Shown in pieces: positions 1-36,036 of a stretch of DNA of 64,000 bases. Origin of the DNA: a virus (taxonomy: Duplodnaviria; Caudoviricetes); IMG/VR virus record IMGVR_UViG_3300026549_000029, positions 1 through 64,000 of that record; one strand, written 5' to 3'. Made by a program: the position numbers and the translations under genes. Each line of letters starts with the position of its first letter. Position 1 is the stretch's first letter. The notes below the pieces were generated by a model. It saw nothing but the letters and a program-made list of their open reading frames with translations, was not told where the DNA came from and did not search any database.

Positions 1-1
1 T

Positions 2-100
2 ACTAATACAACATATTGCAATTTTGAATGTTATGTTAGAAATAATGCTTATGGATATGTAGAATGCAATATAACTATAAAATCAATTATTTTTTCTTAA
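2..100 (+). CDS. 3' end of an upstream paralog of the KWGNT-repeat adhesin/fibre genes (partial)
   Basis: Open frame ...CNITIKSIIFS* resembles the C-terminus of 153..704 (ITATITSIEFS*). Confidence 0.6.
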   Translation, partial: TNTTYCNFECYVRNNAYGYVECNITIKSIIFS

Positions 101-113
101 TAATATTATATTT

Positions 114-145
114 TTTCTATGACGCTTACTAGTATTATGCTATAT
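114..145 (+). repeat. 32-nt direct repeat upstream of adhesin-like cassettes (copy 1; copy 2 at 707-738)
   Basis: tttctatgacgcttac[t/c]agtattatgctatat occurs before both ATGs with one mismatch. Confidence 0.9.
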
Positions 146-152
146 ATAATAT

Positions 153-704
153 ATGGCAATAAAATGGGGTAGTACATATGTTACTGTTGTTAAATGGGGT
201 AATACAGTATGTACTCAAGTTAAATGGGGAAATACAGTAGTATTTCCTACCGGGGGATATGCTGGTAGTGAATTTTCTCCTCCTTTAATTGGGGGAATGA
301 CTTCAAAAATCGTATATAATAGTACCGATTATTATCAAAAAACTATAACATCTGGAACTTTAACAAATTCCGGATATGTTACTGTAAGAAGTAGTGGTTA
401 TTGGGCAAATATAGTTTTTACAGCTATAAATAAAGCAGATTTTACAAAATATAATAATTTAAAATTAACTTTTTCTTGTACAAAAGATACAGCTGATACC
501 AGATTTTATTTTTCTCGTATTGATTGTTATTCATCTAGTAATTCAATTAGTTTTTATAGTGGTGATAGTGGTACAACAAAATCCATTTCTGGTTATACAT
601 CTGCAGATTATAATTTTCAAATAATTGCACGATTTACAATATCTAAAGGATCAAATATTTCTTCTACAATAACTGCTACAATAACTTCGATAGAATTTTC
701 ATAA
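153..704 (+). CDS. putative receptor-binding/fibre accessory protein, 3x KWGNT N-terminal repeat with variable beta-rich C-domain
   Basis: Shared N-terminus with 744..1490, S/T-rich, lies next to tail-fibre genes. Confidence 0.5.
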   Translation: MAIKWGSTYVTVVKWGNTVCTQVKWGNTVVFPTGGYAGSEFSPPLIGGMTSKIVYNSTDYYQKTITSGTLTNSGYVTVRSSGYWANIVFTAINKADFTKYNNLKLTFSCTKDTADTRFYFSRIDCYSSSNSISFYSGDSGTTKSISGYTSADYNFQIIARFTISKGSNISSTITATITSIEFS

Positions 705-743
705 TATTTCTATGACGCTTACCAGTATTATGCTATATTATAT

Positions 744-1490
744 ATGCTAAAATGGGGCAATACTGAAGTTACTATTGTTAAATGGGGTAATACTAATTGT
801 ACAGTAGTAAAATGGGGTAATACTGTAGTATTTCCTACTAATAATGGATTTGATGTAAATAGCGGTACATTTGTAGCGCCTATTGCTAGTGGATTATATT
901 ACTTTCCAAATTTTGGTGGGGATAGTACATTAACAACAGGAACAGCATTTACTGGAAATAAAACAAGTTTGGCATATACTGGTTCTAACCGTGTTACTTT
1001 TGTAAGTAAAACAGCTTTAACAGCAGCACAATGGAATCAGATAAAACAAGTAAGAATTGTTGCAAGATGGATAGTATATAATGCTAGTATGGTACTAGAT
1101 TCTGATATGTATTTTTCTGCAGCATCTAGTAGTGGTATGGGTATATATATGAATAAAGATTCAAATACAAGTGCTTTTACTAGCAATAGCAGTAATGGCT
1201 ATAAATGGGCAAACTGTAGTGGATGGCTTCATCCATGGCAAGCAGAGTGGTATTATAATGCACTTGATTGGTGTGGACAAACTCAATCGACTACAGGTAG
1301 TAGACCTCAAGGAAGTAATGTTATAGTTACTCATACACAAACGATTGATAAAGTATCTCGTTTTCAAGGTACTGCATATTTAGGAATAGCTCAATATCCT
1401 AATGTTACTGGTTGCCCTGGTGTTGGTGCATATAAATATTTTAGAGTAGAATTGCAATCAATCGAAATTTTAACATCTATAAAATATTAA
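744..1490 (+). CDS. putative receptor-binding/fibre accessory protein, paralog of 153..704
   Basis: KWGNT x3 followed by VVFPT, divergent C-domain. Confidence 0.5.
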   Translation: MLKWGNTEVTIVKWGNTNCTVVKWGNTVVFPTNNGFDVNSGTFVAPIASGLYYFPNFGGDSTLTTGTAFTGNKTSLAYTGSNRVTFVSKTALTAAQWNQIKQVRIVARWIVYNASMVLDSDMYFSAASSSGMGIYMNKDSNTSAFTSNSSNGYKWANCSGWLHPWQAEWYYNALDWCGQTQSTTGSRPQGSNVIVTHTQTIDKVSRFQGTAYLGIAQYPNVTGCPGVGAYKYFRVELQSIEILTSIKY

Positions 1491-1529
1491 TTTATATCAT
1501 TTTTATTATATATAAAGGAGACTCTTTAT

Positions 1530-2513
1530 ATGGCACAAATTAATAAAGTAAATGTATCTGATACTACATATGATATAAGTCAATCACCAGATGCTACATT
1601 TACTGCTACAAGTAATGATAATGCATCTCCTACTAGTTGGACCGATGTAGCAGTATTAGCATCAGGAGAAACTAATAGTAGTATATTCAGTAAGATATCT
1701 TCTATGTTTAAGAATATAAGATTTTTATATTCTAAATTAGGTACTAGTGATTTCTCTTCTGCTGGTGATACAGTATCTGCTGCATTAGCAGCATTAGAAT
1801 CTGGCAAATCAGATACTGATCATACACATACGGCAGCAACTACTGCTGCTGCAGGATTTATGCCTGCATTAAATGGTAATTCTGATACATGTTTATTAGG
1901 TGATGGTACATGGGGTACAGCAGGTTCTACATATGCTAATGTATCTACTGCTGCTCCTGGTTTAGCTCCTACATTATCTGGTACTGCTACACAATATCTT
2001 AATGGTAATGGAGGATGGACTACACCACCTGATAATAATACTACTTATGCTAATTTCGGTTCTGGATCTGCTGGTTTAGTACCTGCTCCTACTGCAACCC
2101 AAGCTACTACAGGTTATGTATTAACAGGTGCAGGTTGGCAGGCTGGTACTAAGTATAATACTGATACTAATACTACATATAGTTTTTCCAATACTGGACC
2201 CACATTAGCTTGGAATACTCAATCTACTGTTGGTACTGTAGGTGGAGTAGCATTAACAGTTAAAATGCCTGCTAACCCTAATACTAATACTACATATGCT
2301 AACTTTACATCAGCTGCTGCTGGTCTTGTTCCTGCTGCTAAGTCTGGATCTACTAATATTGCTACTTCTGCATATGTATTAACAGGTGCAGGGTGGGCTG
2401 CTGGTACTAAGTATAATACTGATACTAATACTACATACGGTACTAATGTTGGATGTTATGGTACTCTTAGTGGTACTACACTTGTTCTTAATACTAGAAA
2501 CTTTAGAGTATAA
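1530..2513 (+). CDS. tail fibre-like protein
   Basis: HTH(T) fibre motif, AGLVPAP / GYVLTGAGW repeats, G/T/A-rich, good SD. Confidence 0.7.
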   Translation: MAQINKVNVSDTTYDISQSPDATFTATSNDNASPTSWTDVAVLASGETNSSIFSKISSMFKNIRFLYSKLGTSDFSSAGDTVSAALAALESGKSDTDHTHTAATTAAAGFMPALNGNSDTCLLGDGTWGTAGSTYANVSTAAPGLAPTLSGTATQYLNGNGGWTTPPDNNTTYANFGSGSAGLVPAPTATQATTGYVLTGAGWQAGTKYNTDTNTTYSFSNTGPTLAWNTQSTVGTVGGVALTVKMPANPNTNTTYANFTSAAAGLVPAAKSGSTNIATSAYVLTGAGWAAGTKYNTDTNTTYGTNVGCYGTLSGTTLVLNTRNFRV

Positions 2514-2530
2514 GAAAGGAGGTATATTGT

Positions 2531-3589
2531 ATGGCTCAAGTAGATAAAATACAGATTGGTAATACTACATATGATATACTTCAATCTGCTGATTCTATAT
2601 TTACTGGTGTAAGTAATGATACAGATGATCAATCTGCTACTAGTTGGACTACAGTAACTGCTTTAGCGTCATCAGAAACTAATGGTTCTATATTTACTAA
2701 ACTCTCTTCTATGTTTAAGAATATAAGATATTTATATTCTAAAATAGGTAATTTAGATGTAGGAGATATAGGTACATCTATTAGTGATGCTATTAATAAT
2801 TTAGCAGAGAATAAAGCAGATAAGAATCATACACATGATACATCTACATTAGATGCTGCTGATGGTACACCATTAATATCTACAACACAGATAGCAGATA
2901 ATAATCATGTACCATCATCTCTATTAGTCAAGAATATGAATGATCAGTTATCTGAATTAATAACTTCTGTATCTAATAAAGCAGATGCTAATCACACACA
3001 TAATAATGCTACTACTGCAGCACCTGGTTTTTTACCTAAGTTAAATGGTGAAGCAACTAAATGTTTATTAGGTAATGGTACATGGGGAATAGCAGGTTCT
3101 ACATATGCCAATTTTAGTTCTGCAGCTGCAGGATTAGCTCCTGCTGCTAAATCTGGTACAACTAGTTTAGTTACTACTGGTTATGTATTAACTGGTGCAG
3201 GTTGGCAGGCTGGTACTAAGTATAATACTGATACTACTTATAATACTTTTACTTCTGCAGCTAACGGTTTAGTACCTGCTGCTAAGTCTGGTAGTACTAA
3301 CTGGGCTACTACTGGTTACGTATTAACTGGAGCTGGTTGGCAAGCTGGTACTAAGTATAATACTGATACTAATACTACTTATGCCAACTTTAAATCGGGT
3401 TCTGCTGGATTAGTACCTGCTCCTACTGCTGCTCAAGCTACATCTGGTTATGTATTATGCGGTAATGGCTGGCAGGCTGGTACTAAGTACAATACAGATA
3501 CTAATACTACTTATGGTACTAATGTTGGATGTTATGGTACTCTTAGTGGTACTACACTTGTTCTTAATGAAAGAAACTTTAGAATATAA
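2531..3589 (+). CDS. tail fibre-like protein, paralog of 1530..2513
   Basis: Same N-terminal module, three GYVLxGxGWQAGTKYNTDT repeats, near-identical C-terminus. Confidence 0.7.
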   Translation: MAQVDKIQIGNTTYDILQSADSIFTGVSNDTDDQSATSWTTVTALASSETNGSIFTKLSSMFKNIRYLYSKIGNLDVGDIGTSISDAINNLAENKADKNHTHDTSTLDAADGTPLISTTQIADNNHVPSSLLVKNMNDQLSELITSVSNKADANHTHNNATTAAPGFLPKLNGEATKCLLGNGTWGIAGSTYANFSSAAAGLAPAAKSGTTSLVTTGYVLTGAGWQAGTKYNTDTTYNTFTSAANGLVPAAKSGSTNWATTGYVLTGAGWQAGTKYNTDTNTTYANFKSGSAGLVPAPTAAQATSGYVLCGNGWQAGTKYNTDTNTTYGTNVGCYGTLSGTTLVLNERNFRI

Positions 3590-3707
3590 TATATTTTTTA
3601 TTTATATCAGTAGAGGATTTCCTCTACTGATATATTTTTATTTTTTATCTCTCTTTTCACTTTTTATTATAAAGCTAAAATTATATTTATATATTAAGGA
3701 GATTATA

Positions 3708-4322
3708 ATGGCTAATAAGAGACATAATGTAATTTCAAAAAATGAAGTTTATATGCTTATTGCTAGAATTATTGCTAAACGTTCTAAAGATCCTAATACT
3801 CAAGTAGGTGCAGTTATTGTATCTGAAGATGATAGAATTCTTTCTGTAGGTTATAATGGTTTTCCTAATGGCATTTCTGATGATGATCCTTCTTATGACT
3901 GGGCAGATAGAGATATTAATTCTTCTAATAATAAATATTTATACTCTACTCATGCAGAAGCTAATGCTATTCTTAATTATAGAGGAGATATTAGAGATCT
4001 TAAAAATGCTACTCTTTATGTTACTCTTTTTCCTTGTAATGAATGTGCTAAAATGGTTATTCAGACTGGTATTTCTCATATAATTTATCTTTCTGATAAA
4101 TACCATGATTCTACTTCTTCTGTTGCTTCTCGTAAAATGTTTGGTACTACTCATACAAAATTTACTCAATACGAATCTTCTATTGATGATAAAGCTGATA
4201 TGATTAATTCTATTATGGTCTTAGGTTCTTCTCCCAAGTATCGTAATCTTTCTGCTGATCAAGAGAATCTTAATTCTCTTATTGAAGATTGGTATAATGA
4301 TATTTTAAATTATATTAGGTAA
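3708..4322 (+). CDS. dCMP deaminase
   Basis: RSKDPNTQVGA, GYNG, HAEANAI and PCNEC zinc-deaminase motifs; SD-supported start at 3708. Confidence 0.92.
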   Translation: MANKRHNVISKNEVYMLIARIIAKRSKDPNTQVGAVIVSEDDRILSVGYNGFPNGISDDDPSYDWADRDINSSNNKYLYSTHAEANAILNYRGDIRDLKNATLYVTLFPCNECAKMVIQTGISHIIYLSDKYHDSTSSVASRKMFGTTHTKFTQYESSIDDKADMINSIMVLGSSPKYRNLSADQENLNSLIEDWYNDILNYIR

Positions 4323-4376
4323 AATTAACTTTAGATATATATTATAAAATTGATAATATATTTGGAGGATTCATAT

Positions 4377-4577
4377 ATGAATCAATTTAATTTATCTAAT
4401 TTTATTGATAATTATATTAAAAAGATTTCTAATAATATTAAAAAACCTATTGTTAAAGAATCTAATATTCCTAAGAAATATAAATTATCTAAAGAAAGTG
4501 GCATTATAGAAATTAAAGATGATAATAAATCACCTTATGAAATTGATGAAGACTCTAAAGTTGAGCCTATTCATTAA
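4377..4577 (+). CDS. hypothetical protein
   Basis: GGAGG SD before ATG 4377. Confidence 0.5.
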   Translation: MNQFNLSNFIDNYIKKISNNIKKPIVKESNIPKKYKLSKESGIIEIKDDNKSPYEIDEDSKVEPIH

Positions 4578-4604
4578 TAAAAATATTATTTAAAAGGAGG
4601 TAGT

Positions 4605-4985
4605 GTGTATATGACTAAACCTAATAATACTGGTCTTTCTTGGAGACAAGTATGGTTTGAATTATTGAATGGACGGAAGATTAAACGTCCTACTTGGAAA
4701 GGGTATTGGATTTGGGAAAATAATACAATTATGATGTATTGTGCTGATGGAAATATTCTTGATATTAGAGAAACAGAGAATCCTGCTTATACCTTTACTA
4801 ATATTGCAAGTAATGATTGGGAAATTCTTCCTGATAATTATGAGTATAAGCCTTATGCTTCTCCTAATAAAAAGAAAGAAAAAGAAGATGCAGATAAAGC
4901 TGTTTCCGAATGGCTCAATAGTTCTATTGATTCATCAGCAACAGCAAATTGTACTATTGATAGAGAATCTATGTCTGGAGATTGA
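4605..4985 (+). CDS. DUF2829-like (Tad2-like) protein
   Basis: L-x-x-G-R-K-I-K-R-x-x-W-x-G...IASNDWEI pattern typical of DUF2829. Confidence 0.55.
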   Translation: MYMTKPNNTGLSWRQVWFELLNGRKIKRPTWKGYWIWENNTIMMYCADGNILDIRETENPAYTFTNIASNDWEILPDNYEYKPYASPNKKKEKEDADKAVSEWLNSSIDSSATANCTIDRESMSGD

Positions 4986-4989
4986 TAAT

Positions 4990-7333
4990 ATGTCATTAGA
5001 AAAAATTAAATATGGATCTTTATTTCAGGATTCTCATAATAAAAATAATTTTCTTCATTATGATGATAAAGATATAGTATCTACATCTTTTACTTATCCT
5101 CATAGTGATGAATATGAATATGAATCTTATATAGAATATATTGATTTTGATGCTGAACGAAAACTTGATATTGATTCTGGTAATGGATTTGAAGTAGCTC
5201 CTTCTGGAAGAAATATTAAGAAAGATTTGAAAGCAGAAGATGGATTATTCTCTAGAAGATTTGGACAAACATTAGCAGATGTTAATCCTTTTATTGATAG
5301 ATATCGTTGTCATTGTACAGATGATGGTGGATTAAGAGGAAGAATTAATGCTGGATTGCGTTGTCCTAGATGTGGTCATTTATGTGAATATGTAGATGAT
5401 AACTTTAGTTATTTTGGTTGGATGGTCTTAAAAGATCCATTTGTAATTATTCATCCTGCATTTTATAAGAAAATAGATACTTTCTTAGGAAGAGGAATTA
5501 CTATACAGGGAGTAAAAAGAACTAAATTAGAAAATATTCTTGATATTTCAGATATAGTAACTCCTTTATCTAGTAAAGCTATTGAGACTAAGATGAAGGA
5601 CGAACCCTATTTTGGAATTGGTATGGTTGAATTTGTAAAGAAATTTGATGAGATTATGGATTTTTATTTGCGAAAAAGACCTACTAAAAAAGAAAATTAT
5701 GATGATATTTATGAACACAGAAATATAGTATTTACACATAGTATACCAGTATTTACTACGTTATTAAGACCATTTGATATTAAGGATGGTAATATGACAT
5801 ATGAACCTACTAATGCTATGTATACTATGATGAATAAATTAGTTACTACTATAAATAAGAATCAAACTAAGATACAAAGAGAACCAAAAATTAAGAATCA
5901 GCAATTATATAATTTACAGAAGAAATTCATGGAATTATATACAGAGCTGGAAACAATATTAAGTGGTAAAAAAGGAGACTTTAGATGTTTATTAGGGGGA
6001 AGATATAACTTTAGTAGTAGAAATGTTATAGTACAGAACCCTGATTTAAGAATTGATGAGGTGACATTACCTGTCATAGGACTCAGTATTATGCTTGAAC
6101 AGAGAATAAAAAATATACTGTGTAGATTATATAATATGAGTCCTAATGAAGCCCATCAATTATGGTATAAATCTACAATAGAACCTGTAGATAGAATAAG
6201 TAGTATAATACAGAGCATAATAGATAATGAAAAAGCCAAGGGATTACCCGGCTTAATAGTACTAATAAATAGGAACCCTAAATTGTGGGGCATTAGGGGG
6301 AAACTCCTAAATGAAAACTGTGTGAATTGCTGGAAGTAGCTAATGCCTCTATGCCTATATGGAGAGAAATCAGAAATAAGTTAGAGGATTAGAGAAGGAT
6401 AAAAAATAATTCCTAACTCTTGTACAATGCTTAATCAGCAGCCAAGCTCTATATAAAAATATAGAGAAGGTTCAACGACTATCCAAGAGGAGTAGAGTTA
6501 GCAAATAACTCGAAGTGCATAGTACCTAAGTCTAATAATATTAGATATGGTAAAGATATAGTCTAAAAATAAGATAAATGACAATTTCATATGGATTATA
6601 ATATTAGTCCCATTTAATATGAAAATATTAAATGAAAACTGTGTGAATTGCTGGAAAATCCTAAAGCTCTCTTGCCTATATATTAGGAGCGAAAGCAGAA
6701 ATAAGTAGAGAGATGATCTATGCTGAGATAAAAGCTATATTATTATATAATATAGTGCTAAGGATTATTAACAATGGATAATCAGCAGCCAAATCTTTAT
6801 AATGTAAAGAAGGTTCAACGACTATCTCTGATGAATGTAAGAGAGTAGGGCTTAAGTAAGCTCGAAGTGCACAGCACCTAAACTAAATATATTTAGCATG
6901 GTGATGATATAGTCTAGTCTCTATTGAAAGAATAGAGTAGTTCATAAAAGAACAGTATAAAGCTAACAACTTTATATGACTTAACGCAATATTATGCATG
7001 TTCTGTATTGGTTTTACTGAGACTTATACCATGGCATTACCGCTTCAGATTTTGCCGCTATTGGCTGCAGACTTTGACGGCGACGTTCTCAATATTCTTC
7101 TTCCTATAAATCAAACTTTTATTAAGCTTGCTTGGGAGAAATTTAATCCTAGAAATGTTATGTATATATCTAGGAATGATGGTTATTTTAACTCTGCTGT
7201 ATCTATGCAGAGAGATACACTTATTAATGCTAATACATTAGCTCGTTGTGGTAGAGATACTTATACTCAAGAAGATTTAGAGAATTTTGATAAACTTTTT
7301 AAGCTTAAAGAATCTCTACTTAAATCTTATTAA
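4990..7333 (+). CDS. multisubunit RNA polymerase beta-prime N-terminal subunit, join(4990..6279,6581..6596,6987..7333)
   Basis: Zn-finger CHC...CPRC, GKKGDFR...GGRYNFSSRNVI; spliced product reads NRNPTISYGSILCMFC...LAADFDGD (catalytic motif). Confidence 0.93.
6280..6580 (+). mobile_element. group I intron 1 in RNAP beta-prime gene (no ORF)
   Basis: Exon ends in U, intron ends in G; core GAATTGCTGGAA, AATCAGCAG, TTCAACGACTA, AAGATATAGTC; 6280-6286 AAATTGT is exactly complementary to the next exon ACAATTT (P10). Confidence 0.92.
6597..6986 (+). mobile_element. group I intron 2 in RNAP beta-prime gene (no ORF)
   Basis: P1 GGAU/GUCC with U-G pair at 6596; same core motifs as intron 1; ATAATATT pairs with exon 3 AATATTAT; terminal G 6986 restores the frame (T+CA = Ser). 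Confidence 0.92.
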
Positions 7334-7337
7334 TTTT

Positions 7338-7368
7338 AAGAGGGAGAAATTTCTCCCTCTTATTTTTT
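7338..7368. terminator. intrinsic terminator, representative of a family of purine-rich/AT-loop/pyrimidine-rich hairpins
   Basis: AAGAGGGAGA-AATT-TCTCCCTCTT plus T-tract; related hairpins near 3610, 8665, 10009, 12508, 17086, 21428, 23725, 25740, 27134, 30320, 31457, 37024, 40761, 42020, 44408, 46027, 49727, 53739, 54057, 54894, 61470. Confidence 0.85.
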
Positions 7369-7378
7369 ATTTTAATTA

Positions 7379-7388
7379 TATATTATAA
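7379..7388 (+). promoter_or_regulatory. putative early (virion RNAP) promoter motif TATATTATAA
   Basis: Recurs intergenically, with a variable first base, at 4338, 21404, 22815, 29580, 31546, 37102, 42101, 44456, 62482; resembles the phiKZ early motif TATATTAC. Confidence 0.65.
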
Positions 7389-7428
7389 TATTGAAATAAT
7401 ATTTAATTATTAAAAAGGAGGTTTTGTA

Positions 7429-8019
7429 ATGGATCTTGGTGCTTATATACAAATTGGTAATTTATCTAAATTGGCAAAACTTAATAATATTAATGTAGCA
7501 AGACTTCGTGGTTATCGGTATATGAAATATGAAGATAAACCTATTGATATTAATGAAGAAATAAAAGGTCTTAATAGATATATTGTTGAAGATTTAGTTA
7601 CTAGTTTACCAGCTTGGTCAATAAATTATAATGTGCATAGCTGGAATTCTGAATCTGATAAGAAAGTACGTAAATTTTATGATTTTAAAAATGAAAGAAT
7701 TAAATGGGAAAATATTCATGGTAAACACAGAAAGAATCTTAAATATGTTTTAAAAATTAAAAAATTAGAAGTTAAAGAACAGTTTAATCTTTTTAATAAA
7801 TATTTAGGAAGAGAAGATATACTTTATATTCATGCTAGACTTGGTAGTAGAAATTGGTCTGGTATTCATTATTGGGATTATAAAAAAGAACCTTGGTATA
7901 TTGATGGAATAGATGATTGTTTTGATGATAGTTATTGTGATATCTATGCTAAAATAGATCCTGATACTCTTAAATATGTAACAGATATAAAGGAAGATAA
8001 TATAGATGAGGAAAGTTGA
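7429..8019 (+). CDS. hypothetical phage protein
   Basis: Strong SD, 196 aa ORF. Confidence 0.75.
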   Translation: MDLGAYIQIGNLSKLAKLNNINVARLRGYRYMKYEDKPIDINEEIKGLNRYIVEDLVTSLPAWSINYNVHSWNSESDKKVRKFYDFKNERIKWENIHGKHRKNLKYVLKIKKLEVKEQFNLFNKYLGREDILYIHARLGSRNWSGIHYWDYKKEPWYIDGIDDCFDDSYCDIYAKIDPDTLKYVTDIKEDNIDEES

Positions 8020-8449
8020 AATAAAATTATCTGAATTACCTAAATATAAATTTGATTCTATAATAAATAATATGGAAAAAGAATTTGGAGTAGATATTGA
8101 TAAAAATAATAATATTACAATTGATATTTTTATTGATAGAAATTCTGGTATTAATGCTACTATAACTAATAAATTTAATGTAAGTAAAAAGAATAAAGAT
8201 GAATTACTAAGATATAATTTAATAGAATTTTTAAATGCTCATATATCTTATAATTTTGGAAGTCAAATAGATGTAAGAACTTTATATGAAAATTATAAGA
8301 ATTGGTGTACTTACAGAAATATTTCATATTATCAAAATATGTCTTTCATTAAGACAGACTGGTTTACAAAATTTTTATCAGACAGAGGTATGTCAACAAA
8401 TAATAATGTTATATTCAATGCTATATATGGTATAGTAACTAGAATATAG
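8006..8449 (+). CDS. hypothetical protein, possible C-terminal winged-helix (LYENYKNWC)
   Basis: Motif like the C-terminal domain of D5-type primase/helicases. Confidence 0.4.
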   Translation: MRKVEIKLSELPKYKFDSIINNMEKEFGVDIDKNNNITIDIFIDRNSGINATITNKFNVSKKNKDELLRYNLIEFLNAHISYNFGSQIDVRTLYENYKNWCTYRNISYYQNMSFIKTDWFTKFLSDRGMSTNNNVIFNAIYGIVTRI

Positions 8450-33914: not shown

Positions 33915-33988
33915 CGGGGTGTAGTTCAGCTCAGTAGAACGCTTGATCTGGGATCAAGAGGCCGTGGGAGCGAAGCCCACCACTCCGA
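33915..33988 (+). tRNA. tRNA-Pro(UGG), atypical (C33, T-loop AGCGAAG), no encoded CCA
   Basis: Full cloverleaf: CGGGGTG/CACTCCG, CTTGA-TCTGGGA-TCAAG. Confidence 0.8.
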
Positions 33989-33989
33989 T

Positions 33990-34270
33990 GCCTAGCATAT
34001 AAAAATATTTTATATAGCTAACCTGGAGGGCCAGGCGTTTGGGTTAATACGACATAACCCATTATTTAGTGAAAGAGTGATTGGGCAATACTTCCATTAT
34101 CATGGTGCAGACATGCATAGTATTTATAGAGGAGGTCCCTATAAATATAAAAGGCCAATCTAGGATAGAATCTTCGGATAATCACTGCAGGATACAGTGT
34201 GAACTGAGCATGATAAGACTATCTGAAATTCGGATCATGAGTTAGTCATGGTGGATGCATCATGCAGTAT
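33990..34270 (+). ncRNA. candidate structured ncRNA B between tRNA-Pro and tRNA-Ile2
   Basis: GC-richer than the genome, several hairpins and long-range pairings. Confidence 0.5.
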
Positions 34271-34279
34271 ATTAATTTT

Positions 34280-34353
34280 GGAGCATTAGCTCAGTTGGTC
34301 AGAGCAGTCGGCTCATAACCGATCGGTCCCAGATTCAAATTCTGGATGCTCCA
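34280..34353 (+). tRNA. tRNA with CAU anticodon, likely Ile2 (lysidine) rather than Met
   Basis: Cloverleaf GGAGCAT/ATGCTCC; arm GTCGG-CTCATAA-CCGAT resembles Firmicute tRNA-Ile2. Confidence 0.85.
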
Positions 34354-34362
34354 CTCTATCTA

Positions 34363-34435
34363 CTCATGGTAGTCAAGCAGTAAAACACAGGACCTTAAAT
34401 CCTGCATTTTGATGTTTCGATTACATCATACCCTA
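34363..34435 (+). pseudogene. degenerate tRNA (Gln-like) with UUA anticodon and unpaired acceptor stem
   Basis: CAGGA-CCTTAAA-TCCTG and GATGT-TTCGATT-ACATC arms intact; 5' acceptor strand does not pair. Confidence 0.55.
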
Positions 34436-34466
34436 TTATTTTTTGTAATTAAAAAGGATAATAAAT

Positions 34467-35057
34467 ATGTCAGAATATAAAAGAGTTTCTTGTCCAAAAG
34501 ATCATCCAAAATATAAAAATAATGGAAAAAGACAAAGAATAGGTGAACATATTTTAATAGCAGAAAAGAAGATTGGAAGATATTTAAAAGATAATGAAGT
34601 TGTTCATCATATTGATGAAAATAAAAAGAATAATAATCCTAATAATCTAATTGTATTTAAAAATGGATCATATCATACATCTTTTCATGATGGAGCAAAA
34701 TTAATACAATTAAATGATGGAACATATATAACAGAAAGAAAAACTATAACAGTAAAAACGGAAAATAATAAACGTGGTGTAAAAGTAATTTGTCCAGTAT
34801 GTAATAAAAATTATATGAATAATTTATCATCTATGTGCAGAGAATGTTATATTAAATCAAATAAAAATTTTAATTATGATATTCCAGAAAAAGAAAAATT
34901 AATAAATAATTTTGTGGAAAATGATTTTAATAAATCTAGAATAGCAAGATTATATAATGTATCTCAAAACTCAATAAGAAAATGGTGTAAAAAATATAAT
35001 ATAAAAGATGTTATAATTAATATTAATATGAGTAAACCTACTAAAGAACGAAAATAA
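34467..35057 (+). CDS. free-standing HNH homing endonuclease (HNH + Zn ribbon + HTH)
   Basis: EH..IAE...VVHHIDENKKNN..NNL...H..FH; CPVC..CREC; IARLYNVS..SIRKW. Confidence 0.88.
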   Translation: MSEYKRVSCPKDHPKYKNNGKRQRIGEHILIAEKKIGRYLKDNEVVHHIDENKKNNNPNNLIVFKNGSYHTSFHDGAKLIQLNDGTYITERKTITVKTENNKRGVKVICPVCNKNYMNNLSSMCRECYIKSNKNFNYDIPEKEKLINNFVENDFNKSRIARLYNVSQNSIRKWCKKYNIKDVIININMSKPTKERK

Positions 35058-35074
35058 ATATTAATATTTATTTA

Positions 35075-35792
35075 AGGAGTGATCTGGTAATACCTTCCTA
35101 TCAATATAGGTTGCTGATGAGCGTAAAAAGGCAGATCTTAGTGTTGATAGTTTAATAAAATCTCCTCCTGTGAATTTTTATTAAACTATATCTTACTATC
35201 TAGAGTATAGTAAGGTTGGGACCCATATACCTATACATGAAGACTGGATATGGAGTTAATGGCAGACATGTCATGCTTATTATGTTTTTCTATTATAGAT
35301 GTCAAAGTTTATAATAGAATTTAGTAACTTCTAATGGTAATCTGGCCAATTACTATTACCTTGTTTCTGCAAAACATATGAGAAAGTACAACTCATAATA
35401 GGGTTTAAAAGAAGTTGCAAGCAGAATATACTGAGATTTTATGAGTTTGATCAGTATATAATGTAAAACTCCTCAAGGGTATAAACAAAGACTGTGTAAT
35501 CTTTGGTAGATATACCCTCTCTTGATTTGCCAGGTTAATGTTAATAAAGGTTTCATCCTAGGCATAGATAGAGTTGGGATGTGAGAAGTCCCTGGAAAAC
35601 TTCGAGAGCAACTAAGCTACTAGATCGTAGTTATAGGCTTGGCTAAGAATCAAGGAGTACTAGCTATCTTAGTAGGGTATAGAAGAATGGGAGAGGCCCA
35701 TCTACTAAAACCGGAAGAGGCAGTAGCTTCTTAGATTGCTTAGATGTAGAAGTATAAAAAATCTGCTGGCAATATATAAAAGTATTGCCAGT
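35075..35792 (+). ncRNA. candidate giant structured ncRNA C (~720 nt)
   Basis: ORF-free, continuous multi-branched helices, directly upstream of tRNAs. Confidence 0.65.
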
Positions 35793-35802
35793 ATTATTTT
35801 TT

Positions 35803-35873
35803 GCCCCCTTAGTATAAAGGTAGTACTATGGCCCTTGAAGCCAGTGGAAGTGGATCGTTACCACTAGGGGGTG
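35803..35873 (+). tRNA. tRNA-Gln(UUG), atypical (C33, T-loop ATCGTTA)
   Basis: GCCCCCT/AGGGGGT, TGGC-CCTTGAA-GCCA, AGTGG/CCACT. Confidence 0.75.
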
Positions 35874-35878
35874 CTTCT

Positions 35879-35950
35879 CTCCGATTAGCTTAATGGTAGA
35901 GCACTGAACTTTTAATTCAGCTTATATGGATTCGACTTCCATATCGGAGA
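35879..35950 (+). tRNA. tRNA-Lys(UUU)
   Basis: CTCCGAT/ATCGGAG, CTGAA-CTTTTAA-TTCAG, TTCGA loop. Confidence 0.88.
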
Positions 35951-35954
35951 TTAT

Positions 35955-36036
35955 GCTCGGCTGGTGGAATTGGCAGACACAGCGGATTTAAGCTCCGCTT
36001 CCGGAAGGAGTAAGAGTTCGAATCTCTTGCCGAGCA
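35955..36036 (+). tRNA. tRNA-Leu(UAA)
   Basis: GCTCGGC/GCCGAGC, GCGGA-TTTAAGC-TCCGC, long variable arm. Confidence 0.92.

Follow-up and report, generated by a model that had tools for sequence, protein, structure and literature searches.

How does a phage obtain an intact RNA polymerase subunit from a gene that is interrupted twice within 16 nucleotides (nt)? The question is posed by a jumbo phage from the bovine gut, whose 287,868-bp virus record (IMGVR_UViG_3300026549_000029) begins with the 64 kb analyzed here, hereafter called the window. Within it, a gene predicted to encode the beta-prime N-terminal subunit of a non-virion RNA polymerase is split by two group I introns, neither of which contains an open reading frame (ORF), leaving a 16-nt micro-exon between them. 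RNA assemblies contain the transcript from which both introns have been removed, together with the circular form of the second intron, and the same pair of introns is found in a relative. The reading that we favor, with a probability of roughly 0.88, is that two independent, ORF-less, phage-type self-splicing introns lie 16 nt apart at an insertion hot spot and are both excised exactly.

Two group I introns and the exon between them

The features of the locus, in window positions, are:

4990-6279, + strand: exon 1 of the RNA polymerase beta-prime N-terminal subunit gene (translated); start ATG at 4990, ending in ...AAT AGG AAC CCT (NRNP)
6280-6580, + strand: intron 1, group I, no ORF; 301 nt, almost without a 3' domain (17 nt past the 3' strand of P7), ending in G6580
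6280-6290, + strand: internal guide of intron 1, AAAUUGUGGGG (AAAUUGU GGGG); GGGG pairs with exon-1 CCCU as P1, AAAUUGU with micro-exon ACAAUUU as P10
6309-6335, + strand: core block of intron 1 (J2/3, 5' strands of P3 and P4); 27 nt, identical to 6630-6656 in intron 2
6466-6483, + strand: P6/P7 5'-strand block of intron 1, GAAGGUUCAACGACUAUC; 18 nt, the same block lying at 6809-6826 in intron 2
6555-6565, + strand: 3' strand of P7 in intron 1, GAUAUAGUCUA; counterpart in intron 2 at 6906-6916
6581-6596, + strand: micro-exon ACAATTTCATATGGAT; 16 nt, encoding T-I-S-Y-G and the first base of Ser, ending in U
6597-6986, + strand: intron 2, group I, no ORF; 390 nt, with P9 and a conserved 72-nt 3' domain, ending in G6986
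6597-6610, + strand: internal guide of intron 2; UAUAAUAUU (6597-6605) pairs with exon-3 AAUAUUAUG as P10, GUCC (6607-6610) with micro-exon GGAU as P1
6987-7333, + strand: exon 3, starting CAATATTATGC and reading (S)ILCMFCIGF...LLAADFDGDVLNILL... to the stop codon; contains the catalytic Asp triad
7337-7372, + strand: terminator-like element just 3' of the stop codon; hairpin at 7337-7362 with an 11-pair stem, followed by the T run TTTTTTATTT

Both interruptions match the Rfam covariance model of group I introns (RF00028, gathering score 50) over its full length (model positions 1-253) and on the + strand, at 6270-6573 with 61.1 bits (E 4.7e-13) and at 6587-6937 with 73.2 bits (E 1.1e-16). In each, a U precedes the 5' splice site and a terminal G closes the 3' end. 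Neither intron holds a + strand ORF of at least 30 aa, and thus no endonuclease ORF lies inside either, so that the initial annotation, which had read two ORF-less introns of 301 and 390 nt from sequence alone, was right on this point. Among the three neighboring genes scanned for an endonuclease, none was recognized as one: the two downstream (7429-8019 and 8006-8449) gave no family match, and the upstream one (4605-4985) matched a PHROG of unknown function and nothing else. The same annotation had called the intron cores near-identical, which is loosely right: the catalytic cores have identical blocks of 18 to 27 nt in common, and overall the introns are 71-79% identical, depending on the aligner. 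They diverge in P2, in the P5 extension and in the 3' domain. In both introns the Rfam alignment leaves some 30-40 nt unmodelled between P7 and P3', the place of the P7.1/P7.2 helices of subgroup IA2.

Each intron carries its own guide, fitted to its own junctions, as had been proposed. The guide of intron 1 forms 11 contiguous pairs with the ligated CCCU-ACAAUUU, four in P1 and seven in P10, with U.G at the splice site, a pairing equalled by 75 of 20,000 shuffles of the first 20 nt of the intron. For intron 2, the P10 strand at 6597-6605 makes nine pairs with nt 2-10 of exon 3, and P1 (GGAU/GUCC, read directly from the sequence) again places U.G at the splice site. The micro-exon thus serves both ribozymes, as had also been anticipated: its nt 1-7 are the P10 partner of intron 1 and its nt 13-16 the P1 partner of intron 2. 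Across the exon 1-exon 3 junction the intron 1 guide fits poorly, with five pairs at best. A twintron, that is an intron inside an intron, was considered and rejected, since the 16 nt that separate the introns stay in the mRNA, where they encode TISYG; the introns are arranged in tandem.

The spliced product and its transcripts

Joining the sequence up to 6279 to 6581-6596 and to 6987 onward gives ...LINRNPTISYGSILCMFCIGFTETYTMALPLQILPLLAADFDGDVLNILL... (NRNP-TISYG-S-ILCMFC...ADFDGD), a product that aligns without gaps to 21 uninterrupted homologues of 520-557 aa. These read NRNPTI[SA]YG[SG]ILQMFCVGF, and therefore carry the TISYGS-like segment after NRNP that the two-intron model demands. The junctions were further enumerated blindly, with exon 1 ending after T, small exons following G and ending in T, and exon 3 starting after G, each solution being scored against a profile of the 21 homologues. 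The best solution was exactly the micro-exon 6581-6596, with a score of 150.9 as opposed to 134.8 for the runner-up. A single intron across the 698-nt gap leaves the poor junction NRNPKLWLNAILCMFC, and the two-intron model was preferred. Skipping of the 16-nt exon would, as first supposed, shift the frame away from ADFDGD and into the short ORF 7008-7109, the product of which ends in ...SIFFFL.

The locus is represented in both metagenomes and metatranscriptomes of bovine gut. Splicing was examined over 5900-7400 in one DNA run (X1) and in three RNA runs from two studies, of which X3 and X5 share a sample and X4 represents a second; all four come from bovine gut. A spliced contig was found in each of the three RNA runs, with lengths of 938, 1360 and 1514 nt and depths of 18.6, 10.3 and 15. 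These contigs follow exon 1 to 6280, continue with the 15 letters CAATTTCATATGGAT, and proceed from 6987 onward; since 6280 and 6581 are both A, they read as exon 1 joined to the 16-nt micro-exon and to exon 3. The 31-letter words across this joint cannot derive from the DNA. The RNA contigs therefore place the junctions, and restore the reading frame, just as the initial annotation had drawn them. The DNA run yielded no spliced contig, and one of its contigs runs unbroken and without a difference from 5900 to 6675, and so includes all of intron 1, the micro-exon and the beginning of intron 2. The RNA contigs from X3, X4 and X5 contained neither a skipped joint from 6279 to 6987 nor a partly spliced form, though contigs drop rare forms and their absence is not implied.

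The same three RNA runs, and not the DNA run, contain a contig that passes from 6792-6986 straight into 6600-6681. The joint from 6986 to 6600 is the signature of a circular intron 2, in which the terminal G6986 has attacked after U6599 and the first three nt have been lost. Such 5'-truncated circles are an established product of group I introns (PMC13168695). This joint fixes the 3' end of intron 2 (G6986) independently of the spliced contigs and reveals ribozyme chemistry beyond splicing; a circle was seen for intron 2 only. As a separate observation, the contig depth summed over intron 2 exceeds that over the exons.

The DNA run also contains a second allele, which in exon 1 is approximately 90% identical to the window; from 6230 on it takes a different sequence, and it meets the window again at a conserved intron core. 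Alleles with differing intron content thus coexist in a bovine-gut sample.

Relatives and insertion sites

We compared 76 loci, comprising 71 from viral contigs, four from contigs encoding close homologues, and the window itself. Insertion sites were fixed by protein alignment, by the rule that U precedes the intron and G ends it (the U/..G rule), and by core motifs where introns fell below the Rfam gathering threshold (for example that of L007, introns 1 and 4 of L079, and the tail-less introns of L089 and L090 described below). About 36 of the 76 loci are uninterrupted over their visible part. The remainder define 13 insertion sites obeying the U/..G rule, which fall into three clusters at codons 333-334 (GGRY), 425-431 (NRNPTISYG) and 455-465 (LAADFDGDV). 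Intron load varies from zero to five in a patchwork over many neighboring sites, a pattern of selfish insertion into conserved motifs; close relatives of the window carry zero, one, two or four introns here. The sites around the micro-exon, numbered in coding nucleotides from base 5002, are occupied as follows:

Site 1275: L054, L066
Site 1278 (site of intron 1): L051, L083; also L044/L060 and L071; by eye L056 and L074
Site 1283: L007, L019, L081
Site 1284: L025 (by eye)
Site 1294 (site of intron 2): L012, L013; by eye L024

Each of the two window sites is thus also filled alone elsewhere, 1278 in L051 and L083 and 1294 in L012 and L013. The pair itself recurs in L079, a relative with 87% aa identity from an independent ENA assembly, where introns of 303 and 388 nt occupy the same sites and are 89% (intron 1) and 86% (intron 2) identical to those of the window, and where the micro-exon ACAATCTCATATGGAT differs by one synonymous change. 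The arrangement is therefore inherited and tolerated, and not a one-off. L079 (4285-5728) has two further introns downstream, so that 111 nt of coding sequence are interrupted four times and the internal exons measure 16, 73 and 22 nt; all four obey the U/..G rule and the ORF is intact after joining. The 22-nt exon encodes (L)LAADFDG, and with it two of the three catalytic aspartates.

The closest relative among the viral contigs, L007 (95% aa identity, approximately 90% DNA identity in exon 1), has neither window intron. It carries instead a 1337-nt intron (5284-6620) with a 300-aa HNH/NUMOD4 endonuclease at site 1283, which lies 5 nt downstream of the intron 1 site and inside the window's micro-exon; the same 1337-nt intron is present in L081, and L083 likewise has an HNH/NUMOD4 gene in an intron. 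A second intron of L007 (6727-7056) is placed at DFDG/D, the site used in phage AR9. The serine codon after TISYG also varies with intron content: it is TCA, split as T/CA, in the alleles with an intron there (window 6594-6596 and 6987-6988, L079 and L024), and AGT in L007 (6633-6635), which has no intron at that point. Codon choice may be restricted by the U that splicing demands, or co-conversion with the intron may have carried the flanking exon along. In L083, a 283-kb relative, we also observed a reverse-transcriptase ORF (1-930, Pfam RVT_1) about 2 kb upstream of the RNA polymerase gene, which could belong to a group II intron or a diversity-generating element.

Very short exons are found at other positions as well. 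In the same genome, outside the window, the family B DNA polymerase gene (119187-119877 of contig C1 of genome G000; 1510-2200 in locus L002) contains tandem group I introns of 366 and 315 nt around a second micro-exon, ATTTACGGTT (119553-119562). This exon probably measures 10 nt: the joined product is KIDTNGIYGLIGLY, and uninterrupted homologues of about 750 aa read KID.NGIYGLIGLY, as a 10-nt exon predicts. Around INRNPTI, the exons measure 35 nt in L024 and 25 nt in L025. In L058 (4892-5724), two introns seem to flank an exon of probably, or at least possibly, only 7 nt (GGTAGGT, 5297-5303), which would restore GGRY with a small score margin over alternatives; the Rfam match to its second intron begins 10 nt upstream of the splice site predicted for it, an offset also seen in the window. 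For L024, L025 and L058, the exact small-exon ends were assigned only from homology and the U/..G rule.

The window introns are closer to other introns of their own genome than to same-site introns of more distant phages, intron 2 being 83% identical over 227 nt to an intron at 155.5 kb. Intron 3 of L079, a paralogue of the intron 1 type, occupies a new site and has a completely re-fitted guide. Together, the within-genome likeness and this paralogue suggest that introns have spread and recombined inside these genomes.

The 3' domain and the short tail of intron 1

Intron 2 ends in a conserved domain of about 70 nt (6915-6986) that comprises a P9 hairpin, a AGUUCAUAAGAGAACU-like motif, a second hairpin and UGAAC...G. 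This domain is common to introns in different genes and phages, and to most introns of the related loci, but is missing from intron 1 of the window. Among 14 other introns that were measured, the tail after P7 is about 70 nt long in 13 and 42 nt in one. The tails of window intron 1 and of L079 introns 1 and 3 reach only 11-17 nt, and each of these three introns lies 16-22 nt upstream of a tail-bearing one. A pattern search recovered two more introns that share this core type and are likewise tail-less, in L089 and L090 of another, 249-kb phage, each followed by at least 290 nt of uninterrupted exon; both score below the Rfam gathering threshold and were identified from core motifs. In L090 (3012-4450), a beta-prime-like gene is interrupted by at least three introns; the final one is tail-less and precedes an exon with NADFDGD.

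Why the introns lie so close together

In the reading that we favor, both introns sit in the gene's most conserved stretch, NRNP/TISYG/S. The ribozyme of intron 1 holds exon 1 by CCCU/GGGG and the micro-exon by its 7-bp P10, while that of intron 2 holds the end of the micro-exon by GGAU/GUCC and exon 3 by its 9-bp P10. Excision of both in vivo, with retention of the 16-nt exon, restores the frame through ADFDGD, and the excised intron 2 then circularizes via its terminal G; catalysis would be expected to proceed independently of protein. This 30-nt stretch, like the DFDGD and GGRY motifs, may be a hot spot at which mobile introns of related phages insert at many neighboring positions. The phage has two of these positions filled, and the close spacing is best read as a by-product.

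Several points weigh against this interpretation. The RNA evidence consists of assembled contigs, which report presence and not proportions, so that partly spliced or exon-skipped forms could go unseen, and the two RNA studies share year and habitat and may belong to one campaign. Intron 1 is almost without P9 and a 3' domain and could need help to splice, and the hot spot is a comparative argument.

Intron 1 might be a dependent ribozyme which, for want of a 3' domain, needs the complete intron 16 nt downstream for folding or for choice of the 3' splice site. All three tail-less introns in the RNA polymerase loci do lie just upstream of a tail-bearing one. These cases are not independent, however, as intron 1 of the window and of L079 are orthologues and intron 3 of L079 is their paralogue; the tail-less introns of L089 and L090 stand alone, and the 7-bp P10 could stand in for the missing domain, which makes such dependence very improbable. 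Also improbable is that double splicing, or a forced order of splicing, times or limits production of the polymerase subunit, with skipping giving a dead, frameshifted product. Such a gate and a constrained order had both been suggested by the initial annotation. Skipping does move the frame off ADFDGD, skipping by similar group I introns of phage Twort is on record (reviewed in PMC3073962), and the likeness of the two cores makes cross-reaction conceivable. Yet the two pairings on the micro-exon do not overlap and can form together, imposing no order, and the intron 1 guide scarcely fits the skipped junction. The fully spliced form was assembled in every RNA run, and the differing sites and numbers of introns among close relatives speak against a conserved regulatory design.

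Selection may instead have kept the pair as a shield. Stacked introns cut the conserved 30-bp stretch into islands of at most 16 bp and would thereby remove the homing endonuclease sites of co-infecting jumbo phages; micro-exons may then be the mark left by selection to shred the target, a process bounded only by the need of each ribozyme for 4-7 nt with which to form P1 and P10. In favor of this, the insertion point of the endonuclease-bearing intron of L007 and L081 falls inside the window's micro-exon, the second allele of the DNA run is close in exon 1, the twin arrangement is conserved in L079 with four sites filled within 111 bp, and an intron-encoded HNH enzyme in the RNA polymerase gene mediates competition between the jumbo phages PhiPA3 and PhiKZ (PMC11620839). 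On the other hand, an intron shields its own site in any case and needs no extra benefit to persist, and ORF-less introns can simply be remnants. As the explanation of the arrangement we consider the shield unlikely, although protection from rival homing endonucleases is a plausible added benefit. The chance of an assembly artefact or a pseudogene is practically negligible, with nothing found in its favor: one DNA contig spans 5900-6675 without a difference, the same structure is present in the independent assembly of L079, and after splicing the RNA carries an ORF that is intact and conserved.

The gene and its surroundings

By homology, the interrupted gene is the orthologue of AR9 gp270, the beta-prime N-terminal subunit of the non-virion RNA polymerase. 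Its product matches PHROG 2987 ("RNA polymerase beta subunit") with E 2.5e-33, and the nearest deposited relatives by tblastn are phiR1-37 g274 and AR9 g270, the latter with 27% identity (E 5e-14) and annotated as the non-virion subunit just named. An uninterrupted homologue (P0019) matches the AR9 subunit in PDB (7S00/7S01 chain d, E 1e-32) and the phiKZ gp55 structure (7OGP chain A, E 9e-13). The catalytic motif AADFDGD is present in the product once spliced, and there are at least 120 homologues of the gene product among the matches listed. The separate exon products gave a sub-threshold match to Rpb1 domain 2 in Pfam and nothing else, and megablast of 4600-7400 against deposited phage genomes found no match. 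Upstream lies a dCMP deaminase gene (3705-4322), a neighborhood kept in all four close relatives compared (L079-L085). Elsewhere in the window, five tRNA genes are clustered at 33915-36036 (Rfam tRNA matches at 33915, 34280, 35803, 35879 and 35955).

Implications and comparison with known systems

The locus provides evidence, natural and in vivo, that exact splicing is still possible when an exon of only 16 nt is shared by two group I ribozymes, which bears on the minimal exon context of these ribozymes, on engineered splicing and on circular-RNA design. It also presents the active-site motifs of jumbo-phage RNA polymerase genes as dense battlegrounds of mobile introns, where three motifs account for 13 sites and a single gene can hold as many as four or five introns. 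The conserved pair and a rival endonuclease-bearing allele in the same habitat make intron-mediated phage competition testable in this group. For annotation the case is a warning, since gene callers split this gene into pieces of 449 and 111 aa, with five residues missing from both. A full-text literature search for such short exons or tandem arrangements in connection with group I introns returned organellar cases only and none from a phage, which, given its incomplete coverage, is weak evidence of novelty.

Several group I introns in one phage gene are already known, including in Bastillevirinae (PMC11878797). Staphylococcus phage Twort (Landthaler and Shub 1999, as cited in PMC3073962 and PMC11878797) has three in one gene and undergoes exon skipping; judging from these citations, it shares with the window the presence of several similar introns in one gene and the possibility of cross-reaction between neighbors, and differs in that the RNA contigs here show the fully spliced and not the skipped form, around an exon of 16 nt. 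Many group I introns per genome that split essential genes are also reported for the gut jumbo phages known as Jug, where splicing was checked with metatranscriptome reads (PMC12880540); these belong to another phage group and involve other genes (terL, nrdD and DNA polymerase), and the available portion of that report makes no mention of a micro-exon. In mitochondrial genes, mini-exons of a few codons between self-splicing introns are regular (PMC10352661), a 1-nt exon separates two group II introns in one case (PMC12308204), and a 1-bp exon is described for placozoan cox1 (PMC5436844). Organellar mini-exons are often spliced with the assistance of protein cofactors, whereas the present exon lies between two phage-type group I ribozymes in the RNA polymerase gene of a bacterial virus. 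The circle of intron 2 resembles those of Azoarcus and Tetrahymena, in which, after excision, attack by the terminal G close to the intron's 5' end yields a 5'-truncated circle (PMC13168695), but was seen in environmental RNA rather than in vitro, and for one intron of the two.

The closest parallels are in the polymerase genes of other jumbo phages. PhiPA3 gp210 has a group I intron at the catalytic residues of its RNA polymerase beta subunit gene (PMC11620839), a single intron with an active HNH endonuclease that serves in phage-phage competition, whereas the window introns have no ORF. The orthologous gene of Bacillus phage AR9, g270, is likewise interrupted by a group I intron near the active site, as the initial annotation had stated for phages of this type. 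That intron stands alone at DYDG/D, 37 codons downstream, and carries the HNH gene g271, while the window has two ORF-less introns, at NRNP/ and one base beyond YG, and leaves DFDGD uninterrupted.

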